Shown: one piece after another, positions 13,452 to 32,000 of the stretch | Position numbering within the stretch: the stretch's first letter is position 1 | How the letters are laid out: the number at the start of each line of letters is the position of its first letter | Source: Fibrobacter succinogenes subsp. succinogenes S85 | GTDB taxonomy: Bacteria > Fibrobacterota > Fibrobacteria > Fibrobacterales > Fibrobacteraceae | Length of the DNA: 32,000 nucleotides | Reading direction: 5' to 3' | Assembly (NCBI RefSeq): GCF_000146505.1 | Contig: NC_017448.1 | Coordinates: forward strand, 1,350,001 to 1,382,000 | The notes under the pieces: model-generated | Told to the model about the DNA's origin: nothing | Database searches by the model: none | Seen by the model: only the letters and a program-made list of their open reading frames with translations | Position numbers and translations under genes: made by a program

Positions 13452-13459
13452 ACAAGCAA

Positions 13460-13726: not shown

Positions 13727-13755
13727 AGAATGAAATGTAGAAAAATAGTATACGG

Positions 13756-14047: not shown

Positions 14048-14064
14048 GTTCTATCGTCTAAATC

Positions 14065-16263: not shown

Positions 16264-16430
16264 TGTATAATTTTGTTTACGAATTCGTTATATTTTTCAT
16301 CACACCAACTAACTCGCAACTTACTCTTTGTAATTTTATTTTTGTATTATTATAAAAAGATAAATACTTGGTACGTTTCAACCAAATTTTGTTTATTTTC
16401 ACTTTAAGATTATAAAAAAAGGGTATTACA

Positions 16431-17477
16431 ATGAGTTCTAAATTTACAGCGCCTCTTATTTTCAGTTCCGCTCTCGCTTTGGGAGCAATGGGTTTTGTCG
16501 CTTGTGGCGATGATTCCAATCCGAGCCTTCCGCCCTCGCCCACCTCTTCTTCGAGCGGCCCAATTGTCATTCCGGAACCAACTGTTGAAACGGCTATTGT
16601 TTTTACCGGCCTTAATGCAGAAGTTGGCAGCAAAAATGTCAAGTTCTATGGAACATTGTCAATTGACTTCGGTGACTCAAACACAGTTGCAGACGTAAGC
16701 GCAGCACGCTTTACCCAAGTCACTTTCAACGTCGTCAAGAAGGGTACTCTAGAGCCGCAAGGTACTGCAGCATTTGCAACACCGATTGACTTTGCAAACT
16801 CCTTTATCCAGACAGTATCGCTCTATGAAACGGGCGTCAAGTCTGACCTCGCTGAAGGCTATACCGAATGTGGTGATTTTGAACTCATCATCACAGCAGT
16901 TGTCGACGACGGCATTACAGAACCTTCCGTCTCTGTTGAAAGAATTCCGTTCACACGCCCGGCCATGTGGTGCCAGGAACCGGAAAGCTCCTCTTCTGAA
17001 GCGCCGGAAGTCACAGGCGCTCCGCTTACAGGTTTTGAAGTCGTAATCAACACCAAAGTTGAAAAGTGCATCAACATAGCCACAAAACAAGCCGCTGAAA
17101 CAGGCGATATCTGTTTTGGCTATGGTGAATCGTCTAACAGATTGTATAGCGATACCGGCGTCAAGTTCGCCCTTTATGCCAACAGAGAATCCGGCAACCC
17201 TGATATATTCTATGGCAAAGTCCTCCGCCCGGAAATAGTCAAGGGCAGTGCAGAAACAACGGACTTCCTTTACAGGGAAAGTGCCTTGCAGGAAACCTAT
17301 CCCAACTTCTACAGTGTCAATGACCAGTTCTTCGTAGGCATCAGGGATACATACGATCCGTACACCAACCCGAACTCCGGTTTCTACGCATTCATCGTAA
17401 CGGACAAGGGTACCAAAATAGACAACGACAGCAACGTAAAAGGCATGAAGGTGTACGTTTACGCAACTGCACAGTAA
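16431..17477 (+). CDS. Hypothetical lipoprotein
   Basis: Signal plus Cys: MSSKFTAPLIFSSALALGAMGFVAC. It has a Pro/Ser linker and an internal SSSSE linker. The upstream region is AT-rich, a strong terminator follows, and I recognise no family. Confidence 0.75.
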   Translation: MSSKFTAPLIFSSALALGAMGFVACGDDSNPSLPPSPTSSSSGPIVIPEPTVETAIVFTGLNAEVGSKNVKFYGTLSIDFGDSNTVADVSAARFTQVTFNVVKKGTLEPQGTAAFATPIDFANSFIQTVSLYETGVKSDLAEGYTECGDFELIITAVVDDGITEPSVSVERIPFTRPAMWCQEPESSSSEAPEVTGAPLTGFEVVINTKVEKCINIATKQAAETGDICFGYGESSNRLYSDTGVKFALYANRESGNPDIFYGKVLRPEIVKGSAETTDFLYRESALQETYPNFYSVNDQFFVGIRDTYDPYTNPNSGFYAFIVTDKGTKIDNDSNVKGMKVYVYATAQ

Positions 17478-17502
17478 TTCAAAAACGAAAACCCTTTAAA
17501 AG

Positions 17503-17527
17503 GACCTCCCCCGTGGAGGTCTTTTTT
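17503..17527 (+). terminator. Intrinsic terminator after the lipoprotein gene
   Basis: GACCTCC (17503-17509) / GGAGGTC (17515-17521) followed by T6. Confidence 0.7.
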
Positions 17528-17557
17528 GTTGTCATTCTTGCACACTTTTCTATATTG

Positions 17558-17806
17558 GCGCTCCTTCGGAGCGCATTTGGCATCTACGATGCCATGCGGC
17601 TGCATCTCGGCCATAGGCAATGTAAACATTGCCTGCGGCACTCAATTTGCACGCATTTAGTACGGCTCGGCAATGGCAAAACAACAAGTTTTTTTGACGT
17701 CTTCGACGTCAGTGGCTACGGCTCGCAAATGCAAAAACAAGTTTTTGCGCATTCTCACCTTGCACACTTTTGCCGCTGCGCTCGCCTTTGACACTCTTCG
17801 AGTGTC
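17558..17806. other. Array of six perfect short hairpins plus direct repeats (non-coding)
   Basis: Hairpins: GCGCTCC-ttcg-GGAGCGC (17558-17575); GGCATC-tac-GATGCC (17579-17593); GGCAATG-taaa-CATTGCC (17616-17633); GACGTC-ttc-GACGTC (17696-17710); GCAAAAAC-aa-GTTTTTGC (17731-17748); GACACTC-ttc-GAGTGTC (17790-17806). Direct repeats: TACGGCTCG..CAAAA.CAAGTTTTT at 17661-17693 and 17717-17746; CTTGCACACTTTT at 17537-17549 and 17759-17771. Confidence 0.55.
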
Positions 17807-17866
17807 TTTTGCTAGGCTCAAAAGTGGGCCTGTAAACAGTCCCGTTTCACTCGCCTTACGCAAAAG

Positions 17867-17883
17867 TTTCTAAATTTGCCTCG
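17867..17883 (+). promoter_or_regulatory. Promoter-like box TTTCTAAATTTGCCTCG upstream of gpmI
   Basis: Contains TAAATTTG, which matches the Bacteroidetes-type -7 consensus TAnnTTTG. It lies 24 nt before the gpmI ATG and is a near-identical copy of the box upstream of cysS. Confidence 0.35.
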
Positions 17884-17906
17884 TAAACATTTTTAATGGA
17901 GTAAAT

Positions 17907-19541
17907 ATGCTCAAGAAACTTTCCAACTTCCCTGGCATCAAGGGCCCGGTCGTCACCATCGTGATGGACGGTTTTGGTATCACCGATAAGGTCGAAGGCA
18001 ACGCCATCAAGGCCGCCCGCACCCCGACTCTCGACAACCTCTTCAAGATGTACCCGAACGTCCTCTTGAAGGCCCACGGCCGCGCCGTCGGTATGCCGAC
18101 CAACGAAGACATGGGTAACTCCGAAGTTGGCCACAATGCTATCGGTGCTGGCCAGGTGTACAACCAGGGTGCAGCCCTCGTTGCAGACGCCATCAACAGC
18201 GGCGACATATTCGATCGCGATGCTTGGAAGGAAATCTCCGGCAACGTTCGTGAAAAGAACACCGTTCTTCACTTCATCGGCCTCTTCAGCGATGGTAACG
18301 TTCACTCCAACATCGCTCACCTTAAGGCCATGGTTGCCCAGGCCAAGAAGGAAGGCGTCAAGAAGGTTCGCGTTCACATCCTCCTCGACGGTCGTGACGT
18401 TCCGGAAACCTCCGCTCTCGATTACGTCGGCCCGTTCGAAAAGTTCCTCGACGAACTCCGCTCTCCGGAATTCGACGTTTGCATCGCTTCTGGCGGTGGC
18501 CGTATGCAGATCACCATGGACCGTTACAACGCTAACTGGAAGATGGTGGAACTCGGCTGGAAGACCCACGTGCTCGGCGAAGGCCGCTACTTCGACAACG
18601 CTACGCAGGCTATTGAAACCCTCCGTGGCGAAACCAAGGCTATTGACCAGGACCTCCCGCCGTTCGTGATTGCTAAGGATGGCGCTCCGGTTGGCACCAT
18701 CAACGATGGCGACTCCGTGGTGTTCTTCAACTTCCGTGGCGACCGCGCCATCGAAATCACCCGCGCCTTCGAAGAAGAATCCTTCAACGAATTTGACCGC
18801 AAGCGCTTCCCGCACGTCTGCTACGCCGGCATGCTCCAGTACGACGGCGACCTCAAGCTCCCGAACCGCTTCCTCGTTCCGCCTCCGGCAATCAAGGAAA
18901 CCAGCGGCGAATGGCTCGCTGAAACGGGCGTGAAGCAGTTCGCTTGCTCCGAAACGCAGAAGTACGGCCACGTGACCTACTTCTGGAATGGTAACCGTTC
19001 CAGCAAGTTTGACGGCGAAACCTACCTCGAAATCGAATCTGACGTTGTTCCGTTCGAACAGCGCCCGTGGATGAAGGCTGCCGAAATCACCGACGCCATG
19101 ATCGAAGCTTTGAAGAGCGGCAAGTACCAGACTCTCCGTTGCAACTTCCCGAACGGCGACATGGTGGGCCATACCGGTTCCTTCCGCGCCGCTACGATGG
19201 CTATCGAAGCTGTGGACATCGGCCTCGCCCGCTTGCTCCCGGTGATTGACGCTCTCGGTGGTGTTGCAATCATCACGGCTGACCACGGTAACGCCGACGA
19301 AATGTACGAAATCGACAAGAAGACCGGCATGCCGAAGGTCAACAAGGACGGCACCTTCAAGGCCAAGACAAGCCACACCCTCAACAAGGTGCCCTGCATC
19401 CTTTACGATAACGTAACGGGTGGCAAGCTCGGCCTCAAGGAAGGCGACTGGGGTCTTTCCAACATCGCAGCAACGACCGCGAACCTCCTCGGCCTCGAAA
19501 AGCACGAGGCTTGGGACGACTCGATGCTCATCATCAAGTAA
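17907..19541 (+). CDS. gpmI: 2,3-bisphosphoglycerate-independent phosphoglycerate mutase (plant/kinetoplastid-like long form)
   Basis: 544 aa. Motifs: MGNSEVGHNAIGAG, GGGRMQITMDRY, YAGMLQYDGDLKLP, FACSETQKYGHVTYFWNGNRS, NGDMVGHTG, ADHGNA. TGGAG RBS. Confidence 0.93.
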   Translation: MLKKLSNFPGIKGPVVTIVMDGFGITDKVEGNAIKAARTPTLDNLFKMYPNVLLKAHGRAVGMPTNEDMGNSEVGHNAIGAGQVYNQGAALVADAINSGDIFDRDAWKEISGNVREKNTVLHFIGLFSDGNVHSNIAHLKAMVAQAKKEGVKKVRVHILLDGRDVPETSALDYVGPFEKFLDELRSPEFDVCIASGGGRMQITMDRYNANWKMVELGWKTHVLGEGRYFDNATQAIETLRGETKAIDQDLPPFVIAKDGAPVGTINDGDSVVFFNFRGDRAIEITRAFEEESFNEFDRKRFPHVCYAGMLQYDGDLKLPNRFLVPPPAIKETSGEWLAETGVKQFACSETQKYGHVTYFWNGNRSSKFDGETYLEIESDVVPFEQRPWMKAAEITDAMIEALKSGKYQTLRCNFPNGDMVGHTGSFRAATMAIEAVDIGLARLLPVIDALGGVAIITADHGNADEMYEIDKKTGMPKVNKDGTFKAKTSHTLNKVPCILYDNVTGGKLGLKEGDWGLSNIAATTANLLGLEKHEAWDDSMLIIK

Positions 19542-19571
19542 TGAGCTTGCGGACAAGCGCCGCGAACCATT

Positions 19572-19602
19572 AAAAAAGGAACCCTTCGGGGTTCCTTTTT
19601 TT
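19572..19602. terminator. Strong (bidirectional-looking) intrinsic terminator after gpmI
   Basis: AAAAAAGGAACCC-ttcg-GGGTTCCTTTTTTT. The GC core stem is 7 bp, extended by A/T pairs, with a T7 tail. Confidence 0.8.
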
Positions 19603-19656
19603 GCATTTTGGCGAAGTCCGATAATGTTGAAAAAAAAAGTTTTCATTCCTTTCAAA

Positions 19657-19671
19657 AAAACTTATCTTTAA
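19657..19671 (+). promoter_or_regulatory. Conserved cassette-upstream 15-mer AAAACTTATCTTTAA (copy 1)
   Basis: Identical 15-mer at 27673-27687 upstream of the second cassette, followed in both by ..AGAAA. It contains TATCTTTA, which is close to TAnnTTTG. Confidence 0.4.
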
Positions 19672-19703
19672 TTCCAGAAACGATGTTGGAATGAGGAATT
19701 AAA

Positions 19704-21029
19704 ATGAGTTTTAATTCTAGAGAGGGTTTTACCCTTATAGAGCTAATGGTCTACATAGCTCTACTTGGTGGTATAGTGCTCTTGGCGGGCCAGGCTTTTA
19801 GCGACAGCACCAAAATGCGTGTCCGTACGCAGAGCATGCTGCAAGCCAACCAGACCGCGGGTAACGTAGGCACGATCCTCAAAGAGGACATCGCACAGCT
19901 TGGCGCCAAAAGCTCAAAAGAAGCTGGCGGCGGAACCATGGACGTATTCAACACCGACCATATTCACGACGTTTACATGGATCCCGATGCTACAGAAGAT
20001 GCAGACAAGGATTCATCTTCATTCACAATCGTAAAAAACGACGACGGAGACGGCAGGGACAAAATCACCATGCGCCGTCTGCGCTATTCCGATGCAGGCG
20101 CCTACCAGGCCGTCGAAGAAGTGACCTGGTTCCTTGAAGACCGCGTCCTTAAGAGATCTTGCAAAAGCACAAGCGCCCTGGTCGAAGATGCAGAATGCCC
20201 ATCGGAAAACGCTAGCGTGGTTACAATCGCAGAACACGTGGACAAGTTCTCGCTCACGCCCGCGAAGCCCACTACAGAAGTGGCCTCCGTCAGCGTACTC
20301 CCCTCATCCAGCGAATCAGACAAGAACTTTAAACTGGTTTCCCGTTTTGGCGATGAAAACTTCGAGCCCGTAACGATTGCCCCCGAAGAAGGCGGCACGT
20401 CTATTAAGCTTTCGGGCTTTTCCATGAATTACAACTTTACCACTAGCGAACCGATTAGCAATCCGGACATGATCAAGGCGAACCAGGTTTTCGTTTCCAG
20501 TCTCGGAAGCAGCTTGAGTTCCTGGGGAGCCCAGTGCATCCAGGTCACCTTAAGTCCCTATATTGAATACGAAATATCCTTTTCCATGCCCTATTCCGCA
20601 ACGGATGACCCCAGCAGAATGTTCTGCCCAGGCAGGGACCACATGGCTGTAGGCTTCAGGTATGCCGAGAACGGCAACAAACTCGACGGACTGAGCGATT
20701 TTCAGTTCTACCCACCAACCGTCGGCGATGAGCGCGACACGGGGCTCCGCAAGATGCGCTTTACGACAAACACGACTTATGAAAACGTCTGTCTAGGATT
20801 CACTTTCGTCAGTTTCTCTCCTGTAGCCTCTTCAGGGAACATCACCATTTCAAACGTCAGGCTCCGAAAGGTTCCAAGTTCAAACTATACGTTCACGGAC
20901 GAGGCTATCGCAACAGCCGACAAGAAAAACGTAAAAGCCATCAAGCTGGAGCTATCCATCAACAAGAATGGCGAAGCCGGAGCCGAGACAGCGATTATAT
21001 CAATCCCAAGCAACGGCCCAAGAGATTAA
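19704..21029 (+). CDS. Large prepilin-type N-terminal cleavage/methylation domain protein (PilW/GspJ-like minor pilin candidate), P1
   Basis: MSFNSREG|FTLIELMVYIALLGGIVLLAGQAF class-III signal with Glu at +5. TGAGGA RBS. 441 aa. It is a paralog of 27755-29176 and shares the C-terminal ...PSNGPRD. Confidence 0.85.
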   Translation: MSFNSREGFTLIELMVYIALLGGIVLLAGQAFSDSTKMRVRTQSMLQANQTAGNVGTILKEDIAQLGAKSSKEAGGGTMDVFNTDHIHDVYMDPDATEDADKDSSSFTIVKNDDGDGRDKITMRRLRYSDAGAYQAVEEVTWFLEDRVLKRSCKSTSALVEDAECPSENASVVTIAEHVDKFSLTPAKPTTEVASVSVLPSSSESDKNFKLVSRFGDENFEPVTIAPEEGGTSIKLSGFSMNYNFTTSEPISNPDMIKANQVFVSSLGSSLSSWGAQCIQVTLSPYIEYEISFSMPYSATDDPSRMFCPGRDHMAVGFRYAENGNKLDGLSDFQFYPPTVGDERDTGLRKMRFTTNTTYENVCLGFTFVSFSPVASSGNITISNVRLRKVPSSNYTFTDEAIATADKKNVKAIKLELSINKNGEAGAETAIISIPSNGPRD

Positions 21030-21050
21030 AAAAAATTGAGGAGTGTGGTT

Positions 21051-24000
21051 ATGTTTAGTAAAAAAGGTGTTTCTCTTGTAACAGTTCTCCTGTTTATGCT
21101 CGTCGCTACAATCGCAGCGACAGCGACATTCAAATGGCTCACTTCCGAGAACCGTTCTTCGGCAACGAGAATGCAGACTCAGGAAGCACGCCAGAGCGCC
21201 ATCGCCGGCATCCAAAGCACCAGAGCCTGGATGACCAACAACGCAAACGAAGTCGGCGCCCTTGTGCGCCAATACGTCCTCGGCGGGAAGCAGCCCATCT
21301 TGCTCAACAGCCGAGTTTCCCCGCACATCAGCAGCAAGCAGGATTTCAACGTCTGGCTGACCGGTGTTAGTGAAACCAACGGCTACTTCAAATTCAAAAT
21401 TCTCTCTGAAGGTATCGCACGCAACGATTCAAAGCACACCGAAGCAGCCATCATCAACGTTTCAGGGCTTTACCAAGTATCAATTCCAGAAATCGAAGAA
21501 GAGGAAACATACAAGAACATCGCCTACGACTACTCGTACTTTGGAGGTTCCATCTCGAACCATGGCGATGCCAAACTTTCATCCATGCTAATCAACGGAA
21601 ACTGGTCGGGAAACCCGATTGGCATTGACAAAAACATCATCATCACAGGACATGCCTCACTTTCCGGTGACAACGTCGATATTTACGGAACAGGTTGCAT
21701 CGGTGGAGACCTCTATACCGATAACGGAATAGAAGCCAAAAATCTCTACGTACACGGAACAGCTCATAAGTACGGTACAAAAAACAAACCTGGAAACCAA
21801 GGCGTATCAAACCACGCCTATTTTGACGGAATCGTTGAACAAGATGCCACAAAGCCATTCCTTGTTGGCGGCAACTTGACGATCAAGAATGTATTCAAAA
21901 CCCACATGGCATCCGGCAACAATCCGGTGACAATTAACGGAAACCTCTGTATTGATTCCGCAATATCCCAAATCCAGATTGGTGAAGCATCAGGAGCAAG
22001 CCCTAGCGATTTACAAAATTTTACCGTCAAAGGTGATGTTTGGGCTTCTCATACAAATGCGTTCTATACAAAAGGCGGCGATTTTCACGAATACTATTAC
22101 AAGCTCATTCTTGGCGAAAACGAAGGTTCTAAAGTTTATCTTCCGGACGCCTTCCACTCTAATGATTATGTCACAATGCGAAATTCCAAAACCTGGAATG
22201 ACTACATGCCCTATATCTATGTAGAAGCCGCTCCAAGCAAATACTACTTCTACCATGTGGAATCCGGTGTTACAGACGTCACCTACGACGGGTCCAAATA
22301 CTTTGTCGGTGGTTACCAGTACCCGCATCACTATAACTATAGCTACGTTCCAAGAAAACTATCTCCATACTGCAACAAGGATGAAAACTCTGAAAAACCA
22401 GTACTCCGCGTGACCCCCTGGTTTAAATCCAATGGGACACTTACGAACGAACACCAGGCCACTAAGCCCATTGCCTGCGCCGACTCCGTCAAGCAAGTCT
22501 GTTACGACATTTGGGAAGAAAAGCCGGGATGCGACGGAGCAAGCTTTAAGGTGGATGACATTTTAAAGACGGCTTACAGCCAGTTTGAAAAATACGCTGA
22601 TAGCGGCTGTGCAAAAGATATCACAACATTAAACGATAGTTTCCCTGAAGTAGCCAACACTTGCTATGACGACAACACCAAAGATGACTACAAGAAAAAG
22701 AACCACATGTACAACGGCTATCTCGTTGTAAAAATCGAGGCGAAACAGTTAAGTCAAAATTACGGAGACGGGCTCAAAGGAAAGTTCATCATCATAGTAA
22801 CTAACAAGCCGGGACAGGTCGCTTTTCCGCCTACAGAAGGAACAAATGATTACGTATTTCTCTACCTAACACAAGGTGCCGGTGAACTGATGGGGCTTGG
22901 TACGAGCAATTATAATTACTTCATCTACACCAAAGAAGACATCGGATCATCAACGTATAGTGAAACAACACATCAAATCACTCCTAGTGGCGGAATTCTT
23001 TTCAACCACGCATCCCTCAGCGGATCCGTGTATGCCGAAGTCGGAACAGGAACCAAATGCGCCAAAGTGGCCGCACTGACGTCCTCCAAGCCATTGCTAT
23101 TCAATCAAGACTTGATGAACAGCCTGACCATAAACCGCATCATTTGCGATGCCTCCGTTACAAACTGCGGTGGTGCGGCATTCTCATCATCGTCCTCGGC
23201 GGCTCCCATGAGTTCATCCGCATCCGAAGAAAGCATCAATGGCAAGGACCCCTACTATATCTCCATTGCGCCTCAGCTAAACGTTACGCTAGAATCACAA
23301 TACAAAGCTACAGAAGCAGCACCCGAAGACGCAAGCAACATCGACCCCTCCATTCTTGTGATTCCGCGAATCATTTACCTTTCCAAGAATGCAGCCGGAA
23401 AACTTGCTGATTATTATTCCGTCTTGAGTCTGAACGGCGCAAACGAAAACAAGAGCCCATCCAAAGTCAGTTGCAATGGCTCATTTTCGACAACAGAAAA
23501 GCTTTACACAGGAACAGAGCTGACTCCCGGAACATACACCTGTAACTACGCTTCAACAAATTACGGAACCGTTCCGTTCTATGTTGTTGTAAGCAACGCC
23601 AGCGGAGAGCTCCCGATCGTTTCGTTCCCAACAGCACCGCTAGACGTTCAGGCACTTAGCTTAAACTCCAGTGTCGATGTATCGGTACATATCGGCAAGG
23701 CCACCAACACTAGCGGGAAAATCAAATTTGACGTGGCCATAAACCAAGCCATCAATGGCTGGACTATAACGCCAAAGGCTGGTGTTACAGCACGCAGCGG
23801 AAGCGGAAGCGCCCTCTACTATACAGTCGAAGTCACCCCCAACGCCACAGCGGAACAGGACATCGAAATCTTTACGATATCCGCAAGCAGCAACGCCGAT
23901 GACGGAGACATGTACTTTACGCTCAGCGCACCGACAGAGCTTTGCCGACTCGTATCGGGTGCAGGCCTCAACCACCATGTTTATCTCAGAGCCCACACGA

Positions 24001-27000
24001 CCATCAACAAGGGCGAACTTTCCGATTACTGCGCCATCAACGATTGCGACGAAGACATGCAAGAAAAGAGCGAGCGCCCAGACTGCGAAATCAGCGACGA
24101 ATGGGTTATCGCTCATGGCACTGCCTGCAGCATCGTAGAAAAAAACTACAGCTGGAAATGCTTGACAAACACAGCCATTTCACTGGCATCCGTAAGTTCA
24201 GCCGACATCCCGCAAGCATGCGAGATTATCATTCCATCTACAAACAACACCATTACAACTCCTGTCGGCGGAGAAACAAGGAATCTATACGGATCCCTCA
24301 AGCGCAAAAAAGTCGAATTGATTGTCAACCTCAAGAACGCATTCGACAAGAGCACTTCCGTCACGTTTCAAGGGCAGTCCTACTCGCAGAGTGAAACTTG
24401 TACAAAGGAAAACAGCCCCTGCACATTCCACGTGCTGGCTGGCGAACAGTATGTATTCACGCACGAAGAATACGGCGAAGACCAGGGGAATTTCAATTAC
24501 TGGGCTTGCGAAGGCGACAACTGCACAAATCCGACAACGCATGAAGACGAGCCCACATTTACATTCTACGGGCCGCACACGATTTCTGCCGAATTTAACA
24601 AGGAATCGCATTGCTATTATGACGACTTCTCGAACATCGGTGCATTCTGCTCCAACGGCGATGAAAACTGCATAGACACTTGCGCAACAGCCCTTTCCAA
24701 GGGAACGCATTGCGCCCCGAAGAACAGCAAACAGCACAAGTCGCACTGGCTCATGACCTACCACAATAGCGGTTCGGGCAACAATGCCGACTATGTCCGT
24801 CCCAACTTCGGCGCCGGTTCCATTTTTGCGTCCAACACCAGCAACGCAAACAACCAGAGCGGAAAAGTTTCCGTCATCCTCAGAAACATGACGGCAGGGC
24901 TGTACGGAACGATGTTCTCTCTCGTCCAGACTTCCGTGCTTGAAAAAGCAAATTCCAATGACTTCCTCAATTCCGGTTTTATCTTCAGGAGCAACGGCAA
25001 TGAACACTTGATTTTGAACGTTTACGGAGTCAGCAAGCCTAACAATAGTGGCGAATTGACATTCCGCGTCTGCAAAGTCAGCGGGCAATCCATCAACAAT
25101 ACAAACAAGGGGTCCTGCCAGCTTGTCTCCAAGAAGGAAGGTTCATCTCCGCTCTCCATAACGAGCAACACATTTATTAAAGTCCGATTCACCATTGATG
25201 ACAACGACTTGCTGAGCATCACCGCCAAGGTCGATGACGACACCTGGGAGGGCGAGCTCAATGTCAGGGACTTCGGCTGTAACGATGCCGACAACGCATT
25301 CGTAGGCATCAGCCTAGCCGACCCCGATTTCAAGATTTACGACAACGGCTGGGTTCCTTCGTCATTCGATGAAACATGCTGGGACGTGCCAACCGTCACC
25401 TGCAACTTTGTTGACAAATACGAAATCGTCCCCCTTAACGATTACGTATCGCCGAAGGTTCTTATCTCTAGCTGGTTCTCCGAAAAGAACTGCTATACCG
25501 AATACTATTACAATGGTTGCGACAACGCGACATCCACTTGCGTAAACGGCACAGGAACCCCAGGCGAAATAGGCTCCAAGCTGAGTGGCGAAACATACAA
25601 GTTCACTCAGGACGGTCAACACGGCTACCTCATTGACGAAAACAAGAGAGCCCAGGACGCTTCCATCAAGGTGGTTTGCCCCGGTGATGCCGGCAGTCTT
25701 GACCTTGCCCAGGACTACTATAGTTGCGGTACGTTCCAAGTCGGGACTACACAGAACTGCATCCACGATTTTGAAATCTGGAACGAAACCCAGTACATGA
25801 GCGCGAACGTTCCGTACGAATTCCCAACGCCGAAAACCAACGGTGTCAACTTGCGCGAAGCCAAGCTCCATATCAACGTGAAAGTAGACGACATCAAAGA
25901 CGGCAACGATCTTGGAACAAACTTGAAAGTCTATTTGCAATCCGCCAACAAGATGCAGAGCTTGACAAGAACGATAAGCGCGGCTGGCCCGCACGACATA
26001 AACGTGGATGACCTCATCGGAACTACAGGATTCAACCCGGAACAGGTCACTAACGTCGTCATCACAAGCGACAACAGTATCAACATCGAAAAATTGCACA
26101 TCCACAGCAACTGTCCGAACAAGCTTGACCTCAAATGCGAACAAGCCGTTTACGACTATACCAAACTTGGATGGAAAATCAAAATCAATCCGCAAAAGGA
26201 CGGAGTCAAGTGCTCTTACACGTCTTCGGACATGAACATTGATTCCGAAACCGATGTCAACTGCAGCGATGTCGTTTATCTCCAATACAAAAATGGATAT
26301 GTCAACAACTGGATTATCTATAACGATTTGCCGACATTTACCGTAACAGCGACCAACAACTTCGGCTCCGAATCGTGTAGCATCAAGGGAGAAAGACCCG
26401 GGAACAACAACATCACCTGCAGCGTCCCGTCAGACCAACAGACAATCCCGTTCGATTCAAAGGCGCCGACATTCAACTTCAAGTTTGGCGAAAACGCCTA
26501 TGGATGGGATTACAACGTCACCTACAAGGCCTATTTAGACAATGAGGTTGTCAAAGAAGGCAGCGCCAAACTCGGCGCCCAGCAATCTTACACGCCTTCG
26601 GATTCCGACGTCAAGCCCTCAAGCGGAGCGCACACCTACAAGGTCGATTTCACCATCGGTGCCTGGACACAGTCCTGTAAGGCAACGTTCACTGTTGAAG
26701 ACAAGACAAAACAGGCTCCCACAATCAGCTCCTGCAGCGTTACGGACAACGGCAAATTCACGGCGGTTGTGAGTAACCCCGATGATGTCAATTACACTTA
26801 CACGTTTACCATCATGGACAACATAGGCAACAAGCTCGTTGACGGAGCGACAGGCACGGGGAACGAAACGAGCCTTGAGTACACATACGCTCCAGGAAAA
26901 GAGGGAACATATAGATACACTGTCAAAATCGGCGAAAGTTCCTGCACAAAGCAAAGGACAGTTTCTTCGCCCATTGAGCTCAAGTGCCAAGACATCACGG

Positions 27001-27548
27001 GACAGAACGCAAGCGACATGATTACCGTAAATCCGATAGTCAACAACTGCTCCGGCTGTACTTACAAGATATTTGACGGAGAACTGGAAAAGAGTTCAGA
27101 CCTAACATTCAGTGATCCCAATGCTACAGGGACAAAGAAATACCGCCTACGGGCTACAGACGAAAACGACAACGTAGCAAATTGCGATTTCAACGTTTCG
27201 TTTAACAGCGAAAGCAACCAGACTACGACACTTGTGCATAGCGACAATCCAAGCTGGGAGTACTTCGCAGAAGGGAGCCACAAGGTCAAATGCACCGGAA
27301 AACAATACTACGGTCACTTAGTATGCAAATGTCCAAATTCCGCATGGAATTACTACGACTGTAGAATGAAATACAATGGTACAGAAATCCGGGTATCCTC
27401 AAACCAGAGTGTTTCAGTAGATGGATCAAACTCACAGTGCTACAACAACTACGTGGCCACTATTGAAATCCTGTCGCCTTACACGACCGGATACAACAAC
27501 CAAACACTCACTCAAGGCCGCGGAATGTACTGCGCCCATACGTGGTAA
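21051..27548 (+). CDS. Giant (2165 aa) Cys-rich protein with PilX/GspK-like E5-less pilin N-terminus, G1
   Basis: ATG 21051 is preceded by GAGGAG (21038-21043); the 21036 start in the track is TTG. The N-terminus reads MFSKKG|VSLVTVLLFMLVATIAATATF, then RMQTQEARQSAIAGIQSTRAWM and FKFKILSEGIARN...AAIINVSGLY. The long extension has beta-helix-like, Ser-linker, lectin-like and Cys-bracketed repeat segments. Confidence 0.85.
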   Translation: MFSKKGVSLVTVLLFMLVATIAATATFKWLTSENRSSATRMQTQEARQSAIAGIQSTRAWMTNNANEVGALVRQYVLGGKQPILLNSRVSPHISSKQDFNVWLTGVSETNGYFKFKILSEGIARNDSKHTEAAIINVSGLYQVSIPEIEEEETYKNIAYDYSYFGGSISNHGDAKLSSMLINGNWSGNPIGIDKNIIITGHASLSGDNVDIYGTGCIGGDLYTDNGIEAKNLYVHGTAHKYGTKNKPGNQGVSNHAYFDGIVEQDATKPFLVGGNLTIKNVFKTHMASGNNPVTINGNLCIDSAISQIQIGEASGASPSDLQNFTVKGDVWASHTNAFYTKGGDFHEYYYKLILGENEGSKVYLPDAFHSNDYVTMRNSKTWNDYMPYIYVEAAPSKYYFYHVESGVTDVTYDGSKYFVGGYQYPHHYNYSYVPRKLSPYCNKDENSEKPVLRVTPWFKSNGTLTNEHQATKPIACADSVKQVCYDIWEEKPGCDGASFKVDDILKTAYSQFEKYADSGCAKDITTLNDSFPEVANTCYDDNTKDDYKKKNHMYNGYLVVKIEAKQLSQNYGDGLKGKFIIIVTNKPGQVAFPPTEGTNDYVFLYLTQGAGELMGLGTSNYNYFIYTKEDIGSSTYSETTHQITPSGGILFNHASLSGSVYAEVGTGTKCAKVAALTSSKPLLFNQDLMNSLTINRIICDASVTNCGGAAFSSSSSAAPMSSSASEESINGKDPYYISIAPQLNVTLESQYKATEAAPEDASNIDPSILVIPRIIYLSKNAAGKLADYYSVLSLNGANENKSPSKVSCNGSFSTTEKLYTGTELTPGTYTCNYASTNYGTVPFYVVVSNASGELPIVSFPTAPLDVQALSLNSSVDVSVHIGKATNTSGKIKFDVAINQAINGWTITPKAGVTARSGSGSALYYTVEVTPNATAEQDIEIFTISASSNADDGDMYFTLSAPTELCRLVSGAGLNHHVYLRAHTTINKGELSDYCAINDCDEDMQEKSERPDCEISDEWVIAHGTACSIVEKNYSWKCLTNTAISLASVSSADIPQACEIIIPSTNNTITTPVGGETRNLYGSLKRKKVELIVNLKNAFDKSTSVTFQGQSYSQSETCTKENSPCTFHVLAGEQYVFTHEEYGEDQGNFNYWACEGDNCTNPTTHEDEPTFTFYGPHTISAEFNKESHCYYDDFSNIGAFCSNGDENCIDTCATALSKGTHCAPKNSKQHKSHWLMTYHNSGSGNNADYVRPNFGAGSIFASNTSNANNQSGKVSVILRNMTAGLYGTMFSLVQTSVLEKANSNDFLNSGFIFRSNGNEHLILNVYGVSKPNNSGELTFRVCKVSGQSINNTNKGSCQLVSKKEGSSPLSITSNTFIKVRFTIDDNDLLSITAKVDDDTWEGELNVRDFGCNDADNAFVGISLADPDFKIYDNGWVPSSFDETCWDVPTVTCNFVDKYEIVPLNDYVSPKVLISSWFSEKNCYTEYYYNGCDNATSTCVNGTGTPGEIGSKLSGETYKFTQDGQHGYLIDENKRAQDASIKVVCPGDAGSLDLAQDYYSCGTFQVGTTQNCIHDFEIWNETQYMSANVPYEFPTPKTNGVNLREAKLHINVKVDDIKDGNDLGTNLKVYLQSANKMQSLTRTISAAGPHDINVDDLIGTTGFNPEQVTNVVITSDNSINIEKLHIHSNCPNKLDLKCEQAVYDYTKLGWKIKINPQKDGVKCSYTSSDMNIDSETDVNCSDVVYLQYKNGYVNNWIIYNDLPTFTVTATNNFGSESCSIKGERPGNNNITCSVPSDQQTIPFDSKAPTFNFKFGENAYGWDYNVTYKAYLDNEVVKEGSAKLGAQQSYTPSDSDVKPSSGAHTYKVDFTIGAWTQSCKATFTVEDKTKQAPTISSCSVTDNGKFTAVVSNPDDVNYTYTFTIMDNIGNKLVDGATGTGNETSLEYTYAPGKEGTYRYTVKIGESSCTKQRTVSSPIELKCQDITGQNASDMITVNPIVNNCSGCTYKIFDGELEKSSDLTFSDPNATGTKKYRLRATDENDNVANCDFNVSFNSESNQTTTLVHSDNPSWEYFAEGSHKVKCTGKQYYGHLVCKCPNSAWNYYDCRMKYNGTEIRVSSNQSVSVDGSNSQCYNNYVATIEILSPYTTGYNNQTLTQGRGMYCAHTW

Positions 27549-27574
27549 GCCTCCATTAAGAAACCAAAGTTTCC

Positions 27575-27603
27575 AAAGCTCCCCATTTGGGGAGCTTTTT
27601 TTT
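27575..27603 (+). terminator. Strong intrinsic terminator after G1
   Basis: AGCTCCCC (27577-27584) -attt- GGGGAGCT (27589-27596) followed by T7. Confidence 0.8.
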
Positions 27604-27672
27604 GTGATAAAGCCGACTTTTTCAAGTAAAAACAGACAATAAAAAAGAATTATTTACCGCTTTTACATACAT

Positions 27673-27687
27673 AAAACTTATCTTTAA
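27673..27687 (+). promoter_or_regulatory. Conserved cassette-upstream 15-mer AAAACTTATCTTTAA (copy 2)
   Basis: Identical to 19657-19671. It lies after the G1 terminator and before P2. Confidence 0.4.
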
Positions 27688-27754
27688 ACTAGAAATATCA
27701 TCATAATTGCATATTTTTATTGCAATTTCAAAAAAGGTGTCGTGAGGGTAGATA

Positions 27755-29176
27755 ATGGAGTTTTTTAGCCTAATGGCAAATAAAGGTACGAAAGTAAAGA
27801 TGCAACGCGCATCCGGTTTTACCCTCATTGAGCTGATGGTCTACATAGCCCTTCTTGGAGGTATCGTCCTCATCGCAGGCCAGGCGTTCAGCGACAGCTC
27901 CAAGATGCGAATGCGAACGCAGAGTATGTTGCAGGCTTCAGAAATAGCAGAAAAGGTGGCTGTAATATTCAAGGCAGATGTCGCACAGACTGGAGCGAAA
28001 ACGTCTATGGAAGATGGCACATCAGAATCTGGGGCGGAATACGGCAACAAATTCAGCAATATCTACACGAGCGTTTACATGGACCCAAGCGTTGACAATA
28101 AAGATTCGTCCTCATTTTCCGTCGTGACCAAAAACGGTTTCGACAGCCTTACCATTCGACGTTTGCGTTACGACGAATCCGGACATTACTCAGCCGTTGA
28201 GCAAATTGCCTGGTTCGTCCGAGACGGATCGCTGTGGCGCAACTGCAGAGTCCTAGAAAAGAAAACAACCCTCTCTGACGACGACCCCTGTACCGACGGC
28301 GCTACATCCGAGCCTAACAATATTGAAATGGCTTCAGGAGTAAGCAAATTCAAAGTTACACCAGGAAAGCCAAGCGTTGTAGGGGACAACATCCAATTAT
28401 TCCCAGGCGCAGGCGAATCCGAATTCAGGCTTGTCGGTAGAAATGACGGGGACCGCGAGATGCCGATTGTAACCAATGAAGCAGGAGAAACGCACAAAGG
28501 CGGAAGCACCCAAATTATATCGGGATTCTACCAGAACTACGACCAAAGCATGCAAACCATAAAAAGCGAAGCCGCCCGAAAGATCAACGAAGTTATCGCT
28601 GTCCGCAACGAGACGTACCCAGATTTTTCGTGGCAGACCCTTTGCGCCCAAGAAGGCAGCAACTTCACGTTTGAACCGAACAATGAGTACGAAATTTCAT
28701 TCGAAATTCTGCCCACCGACGAAAATGCAGACAAAAGCAAGTTATTCGTCCCTGGAGAAGACCACATGTCCGTTGGTTTGCGAAGTCTTGAGACTGGAGG
28801 CCCAATTACGTATGGAGACCCCGCCACAAAAATTAGTGATTTTGCCTTCTTCCCTCCTTTGGGCGTCAAAAGCGAAGGAAGCGGAGAACGCTCCATGCGT
28901 TTTTCAGTCCCTATCAAGATTACAAAAGCATGTCTCGCGTTCACGTTCGCCTGCTATTCCCCTCTCGTATCACAAGGGAAAATATCCATCTCAAAATTGA
29001 AAGTCCTAAAGATACCCAGTGCTAACTACAAATTCGAAAATTATGATTTCGAAGCAAACAAAATTGACAAGCAGAACGTAAAGGCGTTTCTGCTAGACCT
29101 GGATATCAGAATCAGAGGCGAATCTGGACATGTTGAATTGGTCGTTCCCACACCAAGTAACGGGCCGCGCGATTAG
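27755..29176 (+). CDS. Large prepilin-type N-terminal cleavage/methylation domain protein (PilW/GspJ-like minor pilin candidate), P2
   Basis: ...MQRASG|FTLIELMVYIALLGGIVLIAGQAF with Glu at +5. The best SD (GAGGG) serves ATG 27755. Alternative starts at 27773 and 27800 would give shorter leader peptides. The C-terminus reads ...PTPSNGPRD*. Confidence 0.85.
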   Translation: MEFFSLMANKGTKVKMQRASGFTLIELMVYIALLGGIVLIAGQAFSDSSKMRMRTQSMLQASEIAEKVAVIFKADVAQTGAKTSMEDGTSESGAEYGNKFSNIYTSVYMDPSVDNKDSSSFSVVTKNGFDSLTIRRLRYDESGHYSAVEQIAWFVRDGSLWRNCRVLEKKTTLSDDDPCTDGATSEPNNIEMASGVSKFKVTPGKPSVVGDNIQLFPGAGESEFRLVGRNDGDREMPIVTNEAGETHKGGSTQIISGFYQNYDQSMQTIKSEAARKINEVIAVRNETYPDFSWQTLCAQEGSNFTFEPNNEYEISFEILPTDENADKSKLFVPGEDHMSVGLRSLETGGPITYGDPATKISDFAFFPPLGVKSEGSGERSMRFSVPIKITKACLAFTFACYSPLVSQGKISISKLKVLKIPSANYKFENYDFEANKIDKQNVKAFLLDLDIRIRGESGHVELVVPTPSNGPRD

Positions 29177-29184
29177 GAGGATTT

Positions 29185-32000
29185 ATGTATAAGCAAAAAA
29201 ATATGAAATCCGGTGTGTCTCTTATCACCGTGCTGATGTTCATGCTTATTGCAACAATAGCTGCAACAGCCACCTACAAGCTACTCACAAGTCAAGGACT
29301 CTCTAGCGAAAGCAGAATGCGCCAACAAGAGGCTTATCAAAGTTCACAAGCAGGCATTGAAAGTGCCAGAATGTGGATGACATTCCACGCAAACGATGTT
29401 GGCGCTTTGGTAAAGGCTTTCATTGACGGAGGCAACAAGCCTATTAATCTTGATGCAAGGTTACGCCCTTTGCAGCGTGCAGGGCAAAATTACCACGTAT
29501 GGCTTACGGGAGTGAACACCGAAAAGAACACGTTCAAATTAAAAATCCTTTCATCCGGCGAATCCAAGAACAACACACAATGGAATGAAACGGCCATATT
29601 TAACGTAGATGGGTTGTATCGAGTCAGGCTTTTTGAAGAAGAAGAATATAGCGCCATTCCGTTCAGATACAATTACTTTGGTGGTTCAACTCAATCACAA
29701 GGCCATATGAAGGCATACTCTTTGCTAATTAACGGCAATACAGAAGGATCCAACCCTATATATACAGAAAACGACCTGATTGTTACGGGAAACGCCATTG
29801 CATCAGGTAATTCCATTGGAGCAGGAACCACAGTATGCATTGGAGGGAATCTTGATGCAAGCAACGGCGTACTCGGCAACGATTTCTATGTCGGAGGAAA
29901 CGCAGCTCACTTCACATTTCCGTCATCATCTGAACCAGCCGGTCTCTACAACGCAAACGTCACAGGTAACGTCTACATAGAAGGCAACCTTGAAGCACCA
30001 ACCACAGGCGATCAAAAATTCCAGAAGAATCTGACAGTCAACGGCACATGGTATACAAACTTTTCAGCGCACGATTCCCGTGTCGCAGGGAACATGTGCT
30101 TAGGGGAAAACGGCCAAGTTCTCATTAGCGAAAAAAATCCCGCACGTGATTTTCTCGTCGGCGGAAACGTTTGGGCAGAATCGACATACCCCATATGGAT
30201 TACAAACGGAGAAGACAACGAAGGCGAATACAACAAGATTATTATTGGAAACAAAAAAGATTCCAAAGTTTACATCAAGAGCGCCCACCCCATCGCTGAT
30301 TACGTAACACTCAGAAACAACAGAACATTTATCGAAAAGAACACCTATTACAAGGGATCCTATACTTATGGATCTCAAGCCAAATGGGATAACAAGACAA
30401 CCCGCCCATACCCAGATTTAAAGCCCCACATGAAGAACAAAAACGACGCCTACTACCTTTACTACTACAACGGTCAAGGCCAAGATGTCGACTACATCGT
30501 TTCTAATGCAGGAGGATGGGGCTGGGGCGCACAAGCGTATTACGCTAACTATTATGTCGGGAACAAAATTTTCTACACCCCCCAAAGTGGCTATTGGGGA
30601 TCGTATGGCTATACCGCAGAAAAAAACAACTTCTTGAATTACCAGAACGGCACACCGACAGGCTCGCCATACTGCAAGGCGACTCCAGATAAGTGGCGCC
30701 CCGAATGCCGAGTTACCCCGTGGTTTAAATCCCAGGGAACCGTATCAAGCGAAATGCCGGCAAGCCAACCTTTTGAATGCGCCGAATCCGTCAAGACCTA
30801 TTGCAACAAGCTCTGGAAAAAGAAAGAAGGCTGCGATGGTGCAAGCTACAAAGTTGACGACATTCTCGTAACCGCCTATAACCAATTCATATCGTACGCC
30901 AACAAAAACTGTAGCAATGTAACACACTGGGGCGACAACATGAGTCGCTATCTTAACGAATGCTACAAAGAAAATAGCTCCGATCCAACCAAATACAAGA
31001 ACAACCTTTACAACGGCTACCAAGTCGTTGAAATTAAAAACCGAACTGAACTTAAAAACCCCACCACCCCCTTAAAGGGCAAGTTTATCATCGTCGTAAC
31101 ACAGGCTTTAGGACAACAAAATTTGCCGCCGACTACAGCAGATTCCTATGTACTCCTCTATCTGAAAGAAGGAGCAAGCTCCACGATTCAAGCAGCGGTT
31201 GAAAACGGCATATACAATTATTTCATCTACACCAAAAAAGACATTGGCGGACTCCTATTTAACAACTCCACTTTCAGCGGCTCGGTTTATGCCACCGCAG
31301 ACAACTGCGCAAAAGTGGGCGATTTCAAGGCACGCTCCTTGGTATTCAACGACGACATGATGAACGATTTGTCGGCAAACGCCGTCATTTGTAACGCATC
31401 TGTAGGCGAAAGTTCTTGCGGAGGCGCAGCAACGGGAACTTCAGGATCCTCATCGTCTTCCTCAGAATCGACAGAAAAACTATTCGATAGCTATTATATT
31501 TCAATGGCTCCGCAATTGGGCGTAAGACTAGAATCCCAAAACAAGAGTTCAGAAACACCTCCACAAGCAAGTAGCAACAACATCACAGAGCTTTCTCCCT
31601 CATTCATTGTACTCCCGCGAATCATTTACTTGCCCAGCGACCCCTACGGACAGCTGACCGACTACTACAATGTACAAACGCTCAACAGCAATGGTGCGGC
31701 CCTGAGAAAATCAGATGTAAACGTATCTTGCTCCGGGCCGGGAGCACTGTCTACAACCGGCAATCTCTATACGGGAACAGCTCTCAGCAGAGGACTTTAC
31801 ACATGTACCGCTACGGCAAGCAATTACCCGAGCATTCCATTCTGGGTCCACGTCGGAAAAGACACCCGCGGAACAGCGACAATCGTATTTGAGAAAGAAT
31901 CCGAAGAAATGGATGCCAACGACTTAAAAGAAGTCAAGCTAGAAGTCCCAGCACATGCTGCAGAACTCACTGTAAACTTCTATTGCCCCGATGTTGAAAA
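29185..32000 (+). CDS. Second giant PilX/GspK-like-N-terminus protein, G2 (5' partial in window; open to the window end)
   Basis: Not in the supplied ORF track because there is no stop codon in the window. ATG 29185 is preceded by AGGAGG (29175-29180), which overlaps the P2 stop codon. I translated the frame by hand and found no stop through 32000 (at least 938 codons). The N-terminus reads MYKQKNMKSG|VSLITVLMFMLIATIAATATYKLLTS...RMRQQEAYQSSQAGIESARMWM...FKLKILSSG. It aligns with G1 in conserved islands. Confidence 0.8.
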   Translation, partial: MYKQKNMKSGVSLITVLMFMLIATIAATATYKLLTSQGLSSESRMRQQEAYQSSQAGIESARMWMTFHANDVGALVKAFIDGGNKPINLDARLRPLQRAGQNYHVWLTGVNTEKNTFKLKILSSGESKNNTQWNETAIFNVDGLYRVRLFEEEEYSAIPFRYNYFGGSTQSQGHMKAYSLLINGNTEGSNPIYTENDLIVTGNAIASGNSIGAGTTVCIGGNLDASNGVLGNDFYVGGNAAHFTFPSSSEPAGLYNANVTGNVYIEGNLEAPTTGDQKFQKNLTVNGTWYTNFSAHDSRVAGNMCLGENGQVLISEKNPARDFLVGGNVWAESTYPIWITNGEDNEGEYNKIIIGNKKDSKVYIKSAHPIADYVTLRNNRTFIEKNTYYKGSYTYGSQAKWDNKTTRPYPDLKPHMKNKNDAYYLYYYNGQGQDVDYIVSNAGGWGWGAQAYYANYYVGNKIFYTPQSGYWGSYGYTAEKNNFLNYQNGTPTGSPYCKATPDKWRPECRVTPWFKSQGTVSSEMPASQPFECAESVKTYCNKLWKKKEGCDGASYKVDDILVTAYNQFISYANKNCSNVTHWGDNMSRYLNECYKENSSDPTKYKNNLYNGYQVVEIKNRTELKNPTTPLKGKFIIVVTQALGQQNLPPTTADSYVLLYLKEGASSTIQAAVENGIYNYFIYTKKDIGGLLFNNSTFSGSVYATADNCAKVGDFKARSLVFNDDMMNDLSANAVICNASVGESSCGGAATGTSGSSSSSSESTEKLFDSYYISMAPQLGVRLESQNKSSETPPQASSNNITELSPSFIVLPRIIYLPSDPYGQLTDYYNVQTLNSNGAALRKSDVNVSCSGPGALSTTGNLYTGTALSRGLYTCTATASNYPSIPFWVHVGKDTRGTATIVFEKESEEMDANDLKEVKLEVPAHAAELTVNFYCPDVE

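Follow-up and report, generated by a model that had tools for sequence, protein, structure and literature searches.

Tandem pairs of a prepilin and a giant PilX/GspK-like protein in Fibrobacter succinogenes are candidate swappable adhesive tips of a type IV pilus

The 3' part of a 32,000-nucleotide stretch of Fibrobacter succinogenes subsp. succinogenes S85 (contig NC_017448.1, positions 1,350,001 to 1,382,000; the whole stretch is called the window here) holds two consecutive gene pairs on the forward strand, P1-G1 and P2-G2, each made of a prepilin gene (P) and the gene of a giant protein (G) that begins right after it (Table 1). Judged from their sequences, the two pairs probably form swappable adhesive tips for a type IV pilus. 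We consider it fairly probable that P and G are a cognate minor (pseudo)pilin pair of a type IV filament, in the GspJ/PilW position and in the GspK/PilX position (the one without glutamate at residue 5, Glu5) respectively, and that they are located at the tip as adhesins. The open reading frames (ORFs) agree with the layout and positions given in a preliminary description of this DNA, and its reading of the class III N-termini and of the common C-terminal end of both P proteins (PSNGPRD before the stop codon) was correct. Full-length P1 and P2 share 42% identity (E 3e-105), and G1 and G2 are 40% identical across ~890 aa (E 0). At the DNA level the sole long repeat between the two units is a 122-nt segment that encodes the alpha1 helix of P (82% identical), and the repeats that they share are found in the conserved 5' ends only.

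The strongest new evidence about the identity of both proteins comes from the gene order in their relatives. A scan of species-representative genomes with a P profile gave 72 loci, almost all from Fibrobacter, Fibrobacteraceae or Hallerella metagenome-assembled genomes (MAGs), plus Fibrobacter intestinalis ATCC 43854. In each locus of this set with enough downstream sequence G lies immediately 3' of P, and the same adjacency is seen in other contigs, which bears out the pairing noticed in the window. A small prepilin gene is found upstream of P in 43 of the 76 P occurrences, its stop codon overlapping the start of P, and a second small prepilin gene lies further upstream in at least 25 of those 43. 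The arrangement can be followed in the core operon of F. intestinalis (locus L032, Table 1), with an H-like gene, an I-like gene, P and G in this order and with overlapping stop and start codons, as is also the case in L008, L009, L022, L028, L030, L035 and others. The best equivalog-level matches of its first gene are a prepilin peptidase-dependent protein model and GspH, and the second gene has weak pilin-family matches to GspI and PilV. P occupies the J/W slot and G the K/X slot of the canonical GspH-I-J-K / FimU-PilV-PilW-PilX order. In several species the core operon is located between what we take, from the translated N-termini, to be dnaA-like and trpS-like genes. P-G loci appear as well in MAGs labelled as Bacteroidaceae, Bacteroidales, Oscillospiraceae, Senegalimassilia, Methanomethylophilaceae and Alistipes (L031, L052, L058, L063, L067, L074). 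These contigs are probably mis-binned Fibrobacter DNA, since L063, L067 and L074 have the dnaA-like gene upstream and the trpS-like gene downstream. The P-G family is restricted to the Fibrobacteraceae.

P is a true prepilin. Against the N_methyl model (PF07963) P1 scores 22.3 and P2 23.4 bits, above the Pfam threshold of 21.2, and against TIGR02532 (16.3) P1 is above with 16.9 and P2 just under with 15.9. The leader of P1 is MSFNSREG (Gly-1 codon at 19725-19727), and the Gly-1 codon of P2 lies at 27815-27817. An alignment of 24 P homologues, 43-70% identical to P1, retains GFTL(I/M)ELMVYIA with an invariant Glu5 (E13 of P1), together with three invariant Cys, an invariant PSNG and a near-invariant C-terminal (I/V/T)PSNGPRD. 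Some databases carry P homologues under the name 'PulJ/GspJ family protein', and when the P family profile was compared with the sequences in the PDB, type IV pilins were matched via the N-terminal helix only. The PilW/GspJ-like reading of P in the preliminary description stands as far as the prepilin signal and the J position in the operon go; the score with the gspJ model, given below, stayed under its cut-off.

The structure predicted for P1 by AlphaFold2 (AF2; mean predicted local distance difference test, pLDDT, 79.9) starts with a 54-residue N-terminal helix (aa 11-64), followed by a beta pilin head up to ~aa 200 and by a separate C-terminal beta-sandwich (~aa 205-434, boundaries from DSSP). 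Foldseek against the PDB matched this model to carbohydrate-binding modules (CBMs) and other jelly rolls, namely CBM4-2, CelK CBM4, CBM22, Bacteroides SGBP-B and Cry toxin domain III (E 1e-5 to 5e-4, probability up to 1.0, target-normalised TM-score 0.36-0.47, identity 7-14%); the match is placed in the C-terminal domain by the alignment lengths, the aligned query residues not being printed. Since no CBM Pfam model (CBM_4_9 or related) matches the C-terminal half of P at E <= 1, the P jelly roll is a fold resemblance and not a family membership. In its predicted architecture, a pilin plus a CBM-like fold, P would resemble a modular pilin whose graft is lectin- or CBM-like.

The N-terminus of G has the features of the remaining slot. 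In G1 it reads MFSKKG followed by VSLVTVLLFMLVATIAATATFKW (Gly-1 codon 21066-21068, no Glu at +5) and in G2 the leader ends in MKSG, followed by VSLITVLMFMLIATIAATATYKL (Gly-1 codon 29212-29214). The same Gly-1, Glu5-less leader is present in all loci, and position +5 is never Glu (it is Thr, Val, Ala or Ile), like in GspK and PilX. In 19 full-length G members 17 of the first 30 positions do not vary, K4, G6, V7 and S8 among them. The share of sequences that carry the commonest residue is highest, 0.85, for aa 1-30, and is 0.63 for aa 31-145, 0.42 for the core and 0.32 for the tail. Such a gradient would be expected of an assembly interface and not of an ordinary signal peptide. In the AF2 model of G1 aa 1-900 (pLDDT 78.7) the predicted pilin-like module has helices at residues 9-77 and four strands at 98-144, with pLDDT 84-90 across aa 41-140. 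PilX_N (PF14341) is matched at E <= 0.01 by 7 of the 19 full-length members, and the alignments with PilX_N and with the T2SS_GspK model cover G residues 5-66, that is, the N-terminus only. Some G homologues carry a precomputed PF14341 match, and one is named 'pilus assembly PilX N-terminal domain-containing protein' by NCBI. G1 and G2 do not match PF07963 or TIGR02532, and no GspK alpha-domain was detected in G. The top Foldseek hit of G1 was the C-terminal domain of a Caldicellulosiruptor tapirin, which we rejected as evidence (E 0.23, probability 0.10). Searching 1.84 billion protein representatives with aa 1-160 of G1 (phmmer) retrieved 289 proteins at E <= 1e-3, 270 of them at E <= 1e-10; nearly all the hits listed are 1,650-3,081 aa long and the short ones resemble fragments. 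By this search the G head appears to be a closed family, in which giant size is the rule. The PilX_N/GspK-type reading of G given in the preliminary description was right in the Gly-1 residue, in the missing Glu5 and in the place of the weak matches along the protein; their scores are under the curated cut-offs.

Behind the head, G is long throughout the family (1936-3201 aa in 70 homologues, median ~2,345). When G1 was compared by BLAST with the 69 other complete members, residues 1 to ~1,700 aligned in practically every one, less completely at 250-550, and for residues 1,700-2,165 coverage dropped from 45 to 3 of the 69. The G family therefore consists of a conserved core of ~1,700 aa and a variable distal end of ~450 aa. 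The stretch of the predicted beta-helix and alpha/beta domain of G1 often has pLDDT above 90, and immunoglobulin (Ig)-like sandwiches come after the Ser-rich linker in the model (Table 1). G had been called Cys-rich, rightly so: G1 has 59 Cys (2.7%), the family has ~3% (51-109 per protein), and many of them are invariant. Pfam searches of the 19 full-length members found PilX_N alone, apart from four marginal hits in single members, and G1 has no internal repeats at the sequence level. Despite the variable tail, the extreme C-terminus of G shows a recurrent [LIV]xC[KGAS]xx[WY]-COOH motif. The last residue is Trp in 28 of the 70 proteins (16 of 47 independent tail types), the background being 1.4%, and a Cys is found within the last 10 residues in 57 of the 70 (42 of 47 tail types; 26% expected). 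By analogy with the proposals made for CpaL and PilY1, this motif may be a 'plug' strand acting in cis, or else a terminal strand stapled by a disulfide.

Several other readings of G were discarded. Hypermutation or recombination of the tail (by a diversity-generating retroelement or recombination cassettes) is at odds with the DNA repeats between units being confined to the conserved 5' ends, and the paper on such retroelements that names Fibrobacter deals with another domain. G1, P1 and P2 have no match to the sorting domain of type IX secretion system (T9SS) cargo, Por_Secre_tail (PF18962), while the two glycoside hydrolase family 10 (GH10) xylanases encoded in the window do match it and served as internal control. 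No domain or motif was found that would support a lipoprotein, and no PilY1 beta-propeller Pfam domain was found in G1, G2 or 18 other full-length G proteins.

Both window pairs belong to a set of 33 P-G pairs without upstream H and I genes, which we call orphans. Each unit had been said to have its own upstream 15-mer, and the sequence AAAACTTATCTTTAA is indeed present exactly twice, at 19657 and at 27673 (0.08 expected; two matches in 0 of 100 shuffles). In 10 of the 33 orphan pairs, from several species, we found an A-tract, TTTTCATTT, a spacing of ~8-10 nt and then AAAAACTTAT(C/T)TTTAAT. Such a promoter-like region was seen 5' of the orphan P in L005, L011, L012, L014, L027, L065 and L066, and the region upstream of unit 2 has its greatest likeness in that of the L011 orphan. 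Its homopolymeric A/T tract is of 9-10 nt, with a length and composition that vary between loci. We take TATCTTTA to be a -7 element of the Fibrobacteres-Chlorobi-Bacteroidetes (FCB) type; the TAT(C/T)TTTA core presumably resembles the -7 element of Bacteroidota-type promoters. The strong terminator claimed at the end of unit 1 was found too (Table 1). Going by sequence features alone, the window cassettes are orphan J-K pairs with what looks like a promoter of their own.

Orphans can stand directly after the core operon (L043, L048, L053, L060) or in arrays, such as the three in tandem in L005. In a neighbour-joining tree of P, P1 groups with the L027 and L005 orphans and P2 with a different orphan clade (L005, L065, L066), and G1 and G2 are in turn closest to the partners of the P genes nearest to P1 and P2. 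For example, L065 and L066 contain the G genes nearest to G2, and among the P genes theirs come second only to that of L005 in closeness to P2. This coincidence of P and G neighbours indicates that the cassettes are inherited as units, and that the two copies in the window are old paralogous lineages and not a recent duplication. Locus L077 is syntenic with the window from cysS to gpmI (its order is cysS, major facilitator superfamily (MFS) transporter, metallo-beta-lactamase (MBL), acyltransferase, uvrB, a 344-aa gene, gpmI, P, G). When its positions 10001-18170 were compared with 19704-32000 of the window, gpmI proved to have a lone P-G cassette behind it, and the genes that come next are unrelated (DUF3990/DUF3791 and sugar modification). 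Since L077 has a single cassette, the second one is variable between genomes. The earlier idea of a family of alternative tips fits with the widespread orphans, the old lineages shared between species and the single cassette of L077.

How such a tip might be assembled can be outlined as follows. P and G would enter the inner membrane by their N-terminal hydrophobic helix, and both would be cleaved by the prepilin peptidase behind the conserved Gly. They would then join H- and I-type minor pilins, whose genes lie elsewhere in the genome, in the complex that starts the filament and that is kept at its tip, G passing via the secretin. The far end of the pilus would thereby carry the CBM-like jelly roll of P and the ~2,000-residue extension of G (beta-helix, Cys-rich beta domains and the variable last 450 aa), and these parts would act as adhesins, most plausibly for plant cell-wall material. 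The cap position is that of GspK and PilX, which have no Glu5 and sit at the top of the tip complex (PMC7541494). Because the window cassettes have no H and I genes and have their own promoter-like regions, they would represent alternative, separately transcribed tip modules mounted on a common machinery.

The machinery itself is documented for this lineage. Every Fibrobacteres genome analysed encodes PilB, C, D, M, N, O, Q and T (PMC4704652), a PilD-type prepilin peptidase being thus reported. The envelope proteome of S85 contains PilM, PilC, PilT, a GspE-like ATPase and an abundant type IV pilin, and transcripts of the genes for the secretin PilQ, PilN, PilM and PilT are present. Fisuc_0248 is annotated as a secretin-family protein and Fisuc_1016/1017 as PilT-like. 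We had considered the S85 'pilin genes' Fisuc_0251-0253 as a possible H-I-P set, wrongly, since Fisuc_0251 is annotated as a fimbrial assembly protein, which we take to be PilN, and Fisuc_0252 as PilM. The link between pilins and the adhesion of F. succinogenes to cellulose, mentioned in the preliminary description, is in the literature (PMC3079729, PMC6851124).

Quite a number of observations weigh against this interpretation. The curated GspJ, GspK and PilX models all scored under their cut-offs: PilX_N gave 19.9 bits for G1 and 21.5 for G2 against 25.5 (25.0 for the F. intestinalis homologue), T2SS_GspK (NF037980) gave 13.6-19.2 against 130, and gspJ (TIGR01711) gave 12.7 for P1 and 14.0 for P2 against 64.85, in the N-terminal 70 residues only. 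The model of G1 (aa 1-900) has no significant Foldseek match in the PDB, GspK and PilX included, the G head has no sequence relative there either, and phmmer yields almost nothing beyond the G family itself. The likeness of P to CBMs is that of a common jelly-roll fold, at the low identities and moderate TM-scores given above. The genes for H, I, the major pilin and the machinery are all missing from the window (none of the window ORFs scanned against Pfam matched the PilB, PilC, PilD or PilQ families, in line with the preliminary description). A subunit of 230-340 kDa is not known to pass a secretin.

The main rival reading is that P and G work in a short type II-secretion-like pseudopilus, whose H-I-P-G cap would push G through the secretin and leave it tethered at the surface as an adhesin or enzyme scaffold. 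The sequences themselves do not separate such a pseudopilus from a type IV pilus. Four genes in the order H-I-J-K and no PilY1 homologue are what type II systems have, K completing its own sheet there (PMC13533445); the best weak matches are to the GspH, GspI, GspJ and GspK models, and a type II pathway and a GspE-like ATPase are said to exist in F. succinogenes. However, PilM, N, O and Q and up to three PilT retraction ATPases, as found in Fibrobacteres genomes, typify type IVa pili, and the envelope proteome contains an abundant type IV pilin. We consider the pseudopilus unlikely. The scores and the structural searches would also agree with G not being a pilin at all, but a secreted or envelope-anchored giant adhesin that merely adjoins a pilin gene and has a Sec signal peptide or an uncleaved anchor. 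Its first residues comprise a basic n-region and a hydrophobic core, an Ala-Thr-Ala (residues 24-26) could serve as signal peptidase I site, PilX_N remains under the Pfam threshold, and the G model matches no solved structure significantly, pilins included. Yet conservation peaks in the first 30 residues (17 invariant columns, the rest being 30-56% identical among homologues), Gly-1 and the Lys before it are invariant, and in the model the hydrophobic stretch continues into a ~70-residue helix that would pack on the four-stranded sheet. Moreover, G always follows a J-like gene, in an operon of H-I-J-K order and with coupled or overlapping junctions. An ordinary secreted G is, in our opinion, decidedly unlikely.

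Very improbable, as we see it, is a surface structure or secreted complex of their own (a fibril, or a scaffold that tethers enzymes), processed by the peptidase and outside any pilus with a major pilin. Orphan cassettes with their own promoter and terminator, far from the machinery, could suggest it, and so could the closed family formed by the G N-terminal module, to which ordinary PilX proteins are not closely related; nevertheless, about half of the cassettes sit in an operon with H- and I-type minor pilins, whose sole known role is the priming of type IV filaments, and the orphans are not accompanied by assembly or secretion genes. For the pilus tip, which we favour, a more elaborate version is possible, and we offer it tentatively. 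The device by which Fibrobacter attaches to cellulose could be a type IV filament with a swappable two-protein tip cartridge, composed of a CBM-like J pilin and a 230-340 kDa K pilin with a covalent adhesin, in which the Cys...Trp motif would fold back as an in-cis 'plug' onto the head, the giant loop would bear the retraction load, and the cartridges (core and orphan) would set substrate specificity.

Table 1. Features of the two P-G units in the window and of the core operon in F. intestinalis ATCC 43854 (the latter in the coordinates of its own locus, L032)
Feature	Position	Strand	Description
Terminator after gpmI	19572-19601		Between gpmI and unit 1
Unit 1 promoter-like region	19627..19673	+	A-tract, TTTTCATT, 15-mer; 15-mer at 19657-19671
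P1	19704-21029	+	441 aa; prepilin in J/PilW position
P1 C-terminal beta-sandwich (jelly roll), CBM-like	20316..21002	+	Foldseek, DSSP on AF2 model
G1 Shine-Dalgarno GAGGAG	21038..21043	+	7 nt 5' of ATG; read from sequence
G1	21051-27548	+	2165 aa; giant protein, candidate for K/PilX position
G1 pilin-like module, aa 1-145	21051..21485	+	AF2: long N-terminal helix and four-stranded sheet
G1 beta-helix (~aa 163-465), then alpha/beta domain (~aa 478-700)	21537..23150	+	AF2, short regular strands
G1 Ser-rich linker (aa 707-725) and remaining core to ~aa 1700	23169..26150	+	BLAST coverage 69 of 69 homologues up to ~aa 1700; alignment, many invariant Cys
G1 variable distal region, ~aa 1700-2165	26151..27545	+	BLAST; terminates in MYCAHTW (27525-27545)
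Intrinsic terminator closing unit 1	27575..27604	+	Hairpin 27575-27598, 10-bp stem with 6 GC pairs, then T run
Unit 2 promoter-like 15-mer, second copy	27673..27687	+	Exact match; region 27640-27690
P2	27755-29176	+	473 aa; prepilin, paralogue of P1
G2	29185..32000	+	G1 paralogue; window ends after 938 aa
F. intestinalis core operon	9006-18341		Order H-like, I-like, P, G
F. intestinalis first gene			172 aa; N-terminus KKGFTLVEVL
F. intestinalis second gene			155 aa; N-terminus KKGFGIVEVL
F. intestinalis P			462 aa
F. intestinalis G			2,323 aa open frame; likely 2,313 aa from MVQNKKG

As to the gene boundaries, P1 ends in a TAA at 21027-29, followed by a gap of 21 nt before the G1 ATG. The open frame of G1 starts at a TTG (21036), and we favour the ATG at 21051 because the homologues begin with MF(N/S)KKG. 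The start codon of P2 is uncertain, at 27755 or at one of the alternative ATGs, 27773 and 27800. The TAG of P2 lies within TAGGAGG, 8 nt ahead of the G2 ATG, and with this the earlier statements that it forms part of the G2 Shine-Dalgarno sequence and that the G genes start 8-21 nt after the P stop are confirmed.

The cassettes are preceded in the window by the housekeeping genes cysS, uvrB and gpmI. Further upstream there is a fibre-degradation neighbourhood (270-1736 and 3533-4936 on the plus strand, 1825-2454 and 6455-8500 on the minus strand) that encodes the two GH10 xylanases with T9SS C-terminal sorting domains, one Fib_succ_major protein and a 681-aa carbohydrate-binding protein of the Cthe_2159 type. 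The MFS transporter gene appears as two overlapping plus-strand ORFs (10272-10895 and 10643-11551), each matching MFS_1. This is a frameshift (a pseudogene or a sequence error), since the syntenic L077 has one intact 423-aa gene. Between uvrB and gpmI there are two plus-strand ORFs without Pfam match, 16431-17477 (348 aa) and 17513-17791 (92 aa), and the 344-aa gene of L077 is called where the window has the former. A 599-aa open frame antisense to gpmI (17856-19655, minus strand) has no family match and is almost certainly no gene.

Few cellulose degraders of the herbivore gut are as effective as Fibrobacter succinogenes and its relatives. They have no cellulosome, and the way in which they grip and process crystalline cellulose is a long-standing question. 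Adhesion models for F. succinogenes cite 'pilin' and fibro-slime proteins without a defined mechanism (PMC3079729, PMC4668043, PMC6851124). The P-G pairs offer a concrete candidate that is found across the genus and can be tested: a putative tip complex of minor pilins that has a CBM-like module and a giant adhesin built in, encoded by a core operon and by variable extra cassettes. Beyond the preliminary description, the analysis adds the H-I-P-G core operon, the CBM-like jelly roll of P, the core and tail anatomy of G and its C-terminal Cys/Trp motif. If the interpretation is true, the principle of modular pilins would be stretched about threefold in size, the J-K half would be duplicated alone, and the question would arise of how such a large subunit passes a secretin. 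For annotation, ~2,000 residues per G protein, in some 270 clusters at 50% identity, are without any domain model. In the library searched we found no paper connecting Fibrobacter with minor pilins, pseudopilins or PilX, and the databases give generic names only.

The systems closest to P-G in gene order are GspH-I-J-K and FimU-PilV-PilW-PilX. They share with the P-G core operon the four genes in the same order, the first three having class III signals with Glu5 and the last one without it, as well as similar N-terminal helices and a complex expected to prime and cap a filament. GspJ/PilW are proteins of ~200-280 aa and GspK/PilX of ~170-330 aa. In contrast, P has 430-490 aa with an extra jelly-roll domain, G has 1,900-3,200 aa and does not reach the curated cut-offs of the corresponding models, and the J-K pair is also found alone, with its own promoter-like region and in tandem copies. 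A second parallel is provided by the modular pilins (Raynaud et al. 2021, PMC8179133), such as PilB of Streptococcus sanguinis with a vWA module and PilC with a lectin module, CofB of enterotoxigenic Escherichia coli (ETEC) and ComZ of Thermus. They also have a small pilin module with a grafted functional module that is displayed by the filament, probably at its tip, and CBMs are among the common grafts (PMC8179133). In their predicted architecture P and G are likewise pilin modules with additions, the jelly roll in P and the beta-helix plus more than 1,500 further residues in G. The largest multi-domain modular pilin noted in that survey has 860 residues (PMC8179133). G is two to nearly four times as long, lacks any recognised domain signature and would carry its graft on a Glu5-less, K-type subunit.

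Other known tips resemble G in one aspect or another. CpaL/TadG of Tad pili is a minor-pilin-like protein of ~600 aa in the K role at the tip. Its middle part, adhesive or sensing, is built covalently into it, and the prediction for its very C-terminus is a beta-strand that doubles back to the pilin-like domain at the N-terminus (PMC13533445). Unlike G, CpaL belongs to a Tad, type IVc filament and is much smaller, and no sequence relationship between the two was found. PilC/PilY1 and MshQ are, like G, very large, associated with the tip, encoded right after minor pilin genes and composed of conserved anchoring and variable parts, but they do not belong to the pilins: their signal is that of signal peptidase I substrates, and a C-terminal plug strand docks them without a covalent bond. 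Myxococcus xanthus has three type IVa minor-pilin/PilY1 clusters and four Kil Tad 'Tips' (PMC7541494; PMC12075869), several paralogous sets per genome that are thought, as we propose for P-G, to give one machine different tips. The Myxococcus sets are complete and directed to prey or surfaces, whereas in Fibrobacter the J-K pair alone is duplicated, the H and I subunits would be shared and the proposed target is a plant polymer.

The same ecological role, holding a cellulolytic cell to an insoluble plant polymer, is played by the type IV pili of Ruminococcus and by the pili and tapirins of Caldicellulosiruptor. These have no homology to P-G, and in them the binding is done by the major pilin or by separate proteins. 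The tapirins, which have a beta-helix, are encoded beside the pilus genes. The Verru_Chthon cassette proteins A-D (TIGR02596-TIGR02600) of Verrucomicrobia also form a four-gene prepilin-type cassette with one large protein, repeated in the genome. The H-, I- and P-like proteins have weak matches to Verru_Chthon cassette proteins D and C, in the N-terminal helix only and far under the cut-offs; no function is known for that cassette and a literature search found no paper on it. Taken together, the grafting of modules on pilins, a built-in adhesin in the K role of Tad pili and interchangeable tip sets were already known, and what is new here is a candidate cap subunit of 230-340 kDa, the CBM-like J subunit, the duplication of J-K only as promoter-bearing orphans, the restriction to the Fibrobacteraceae and the C-terminal Cys/Trp motif.

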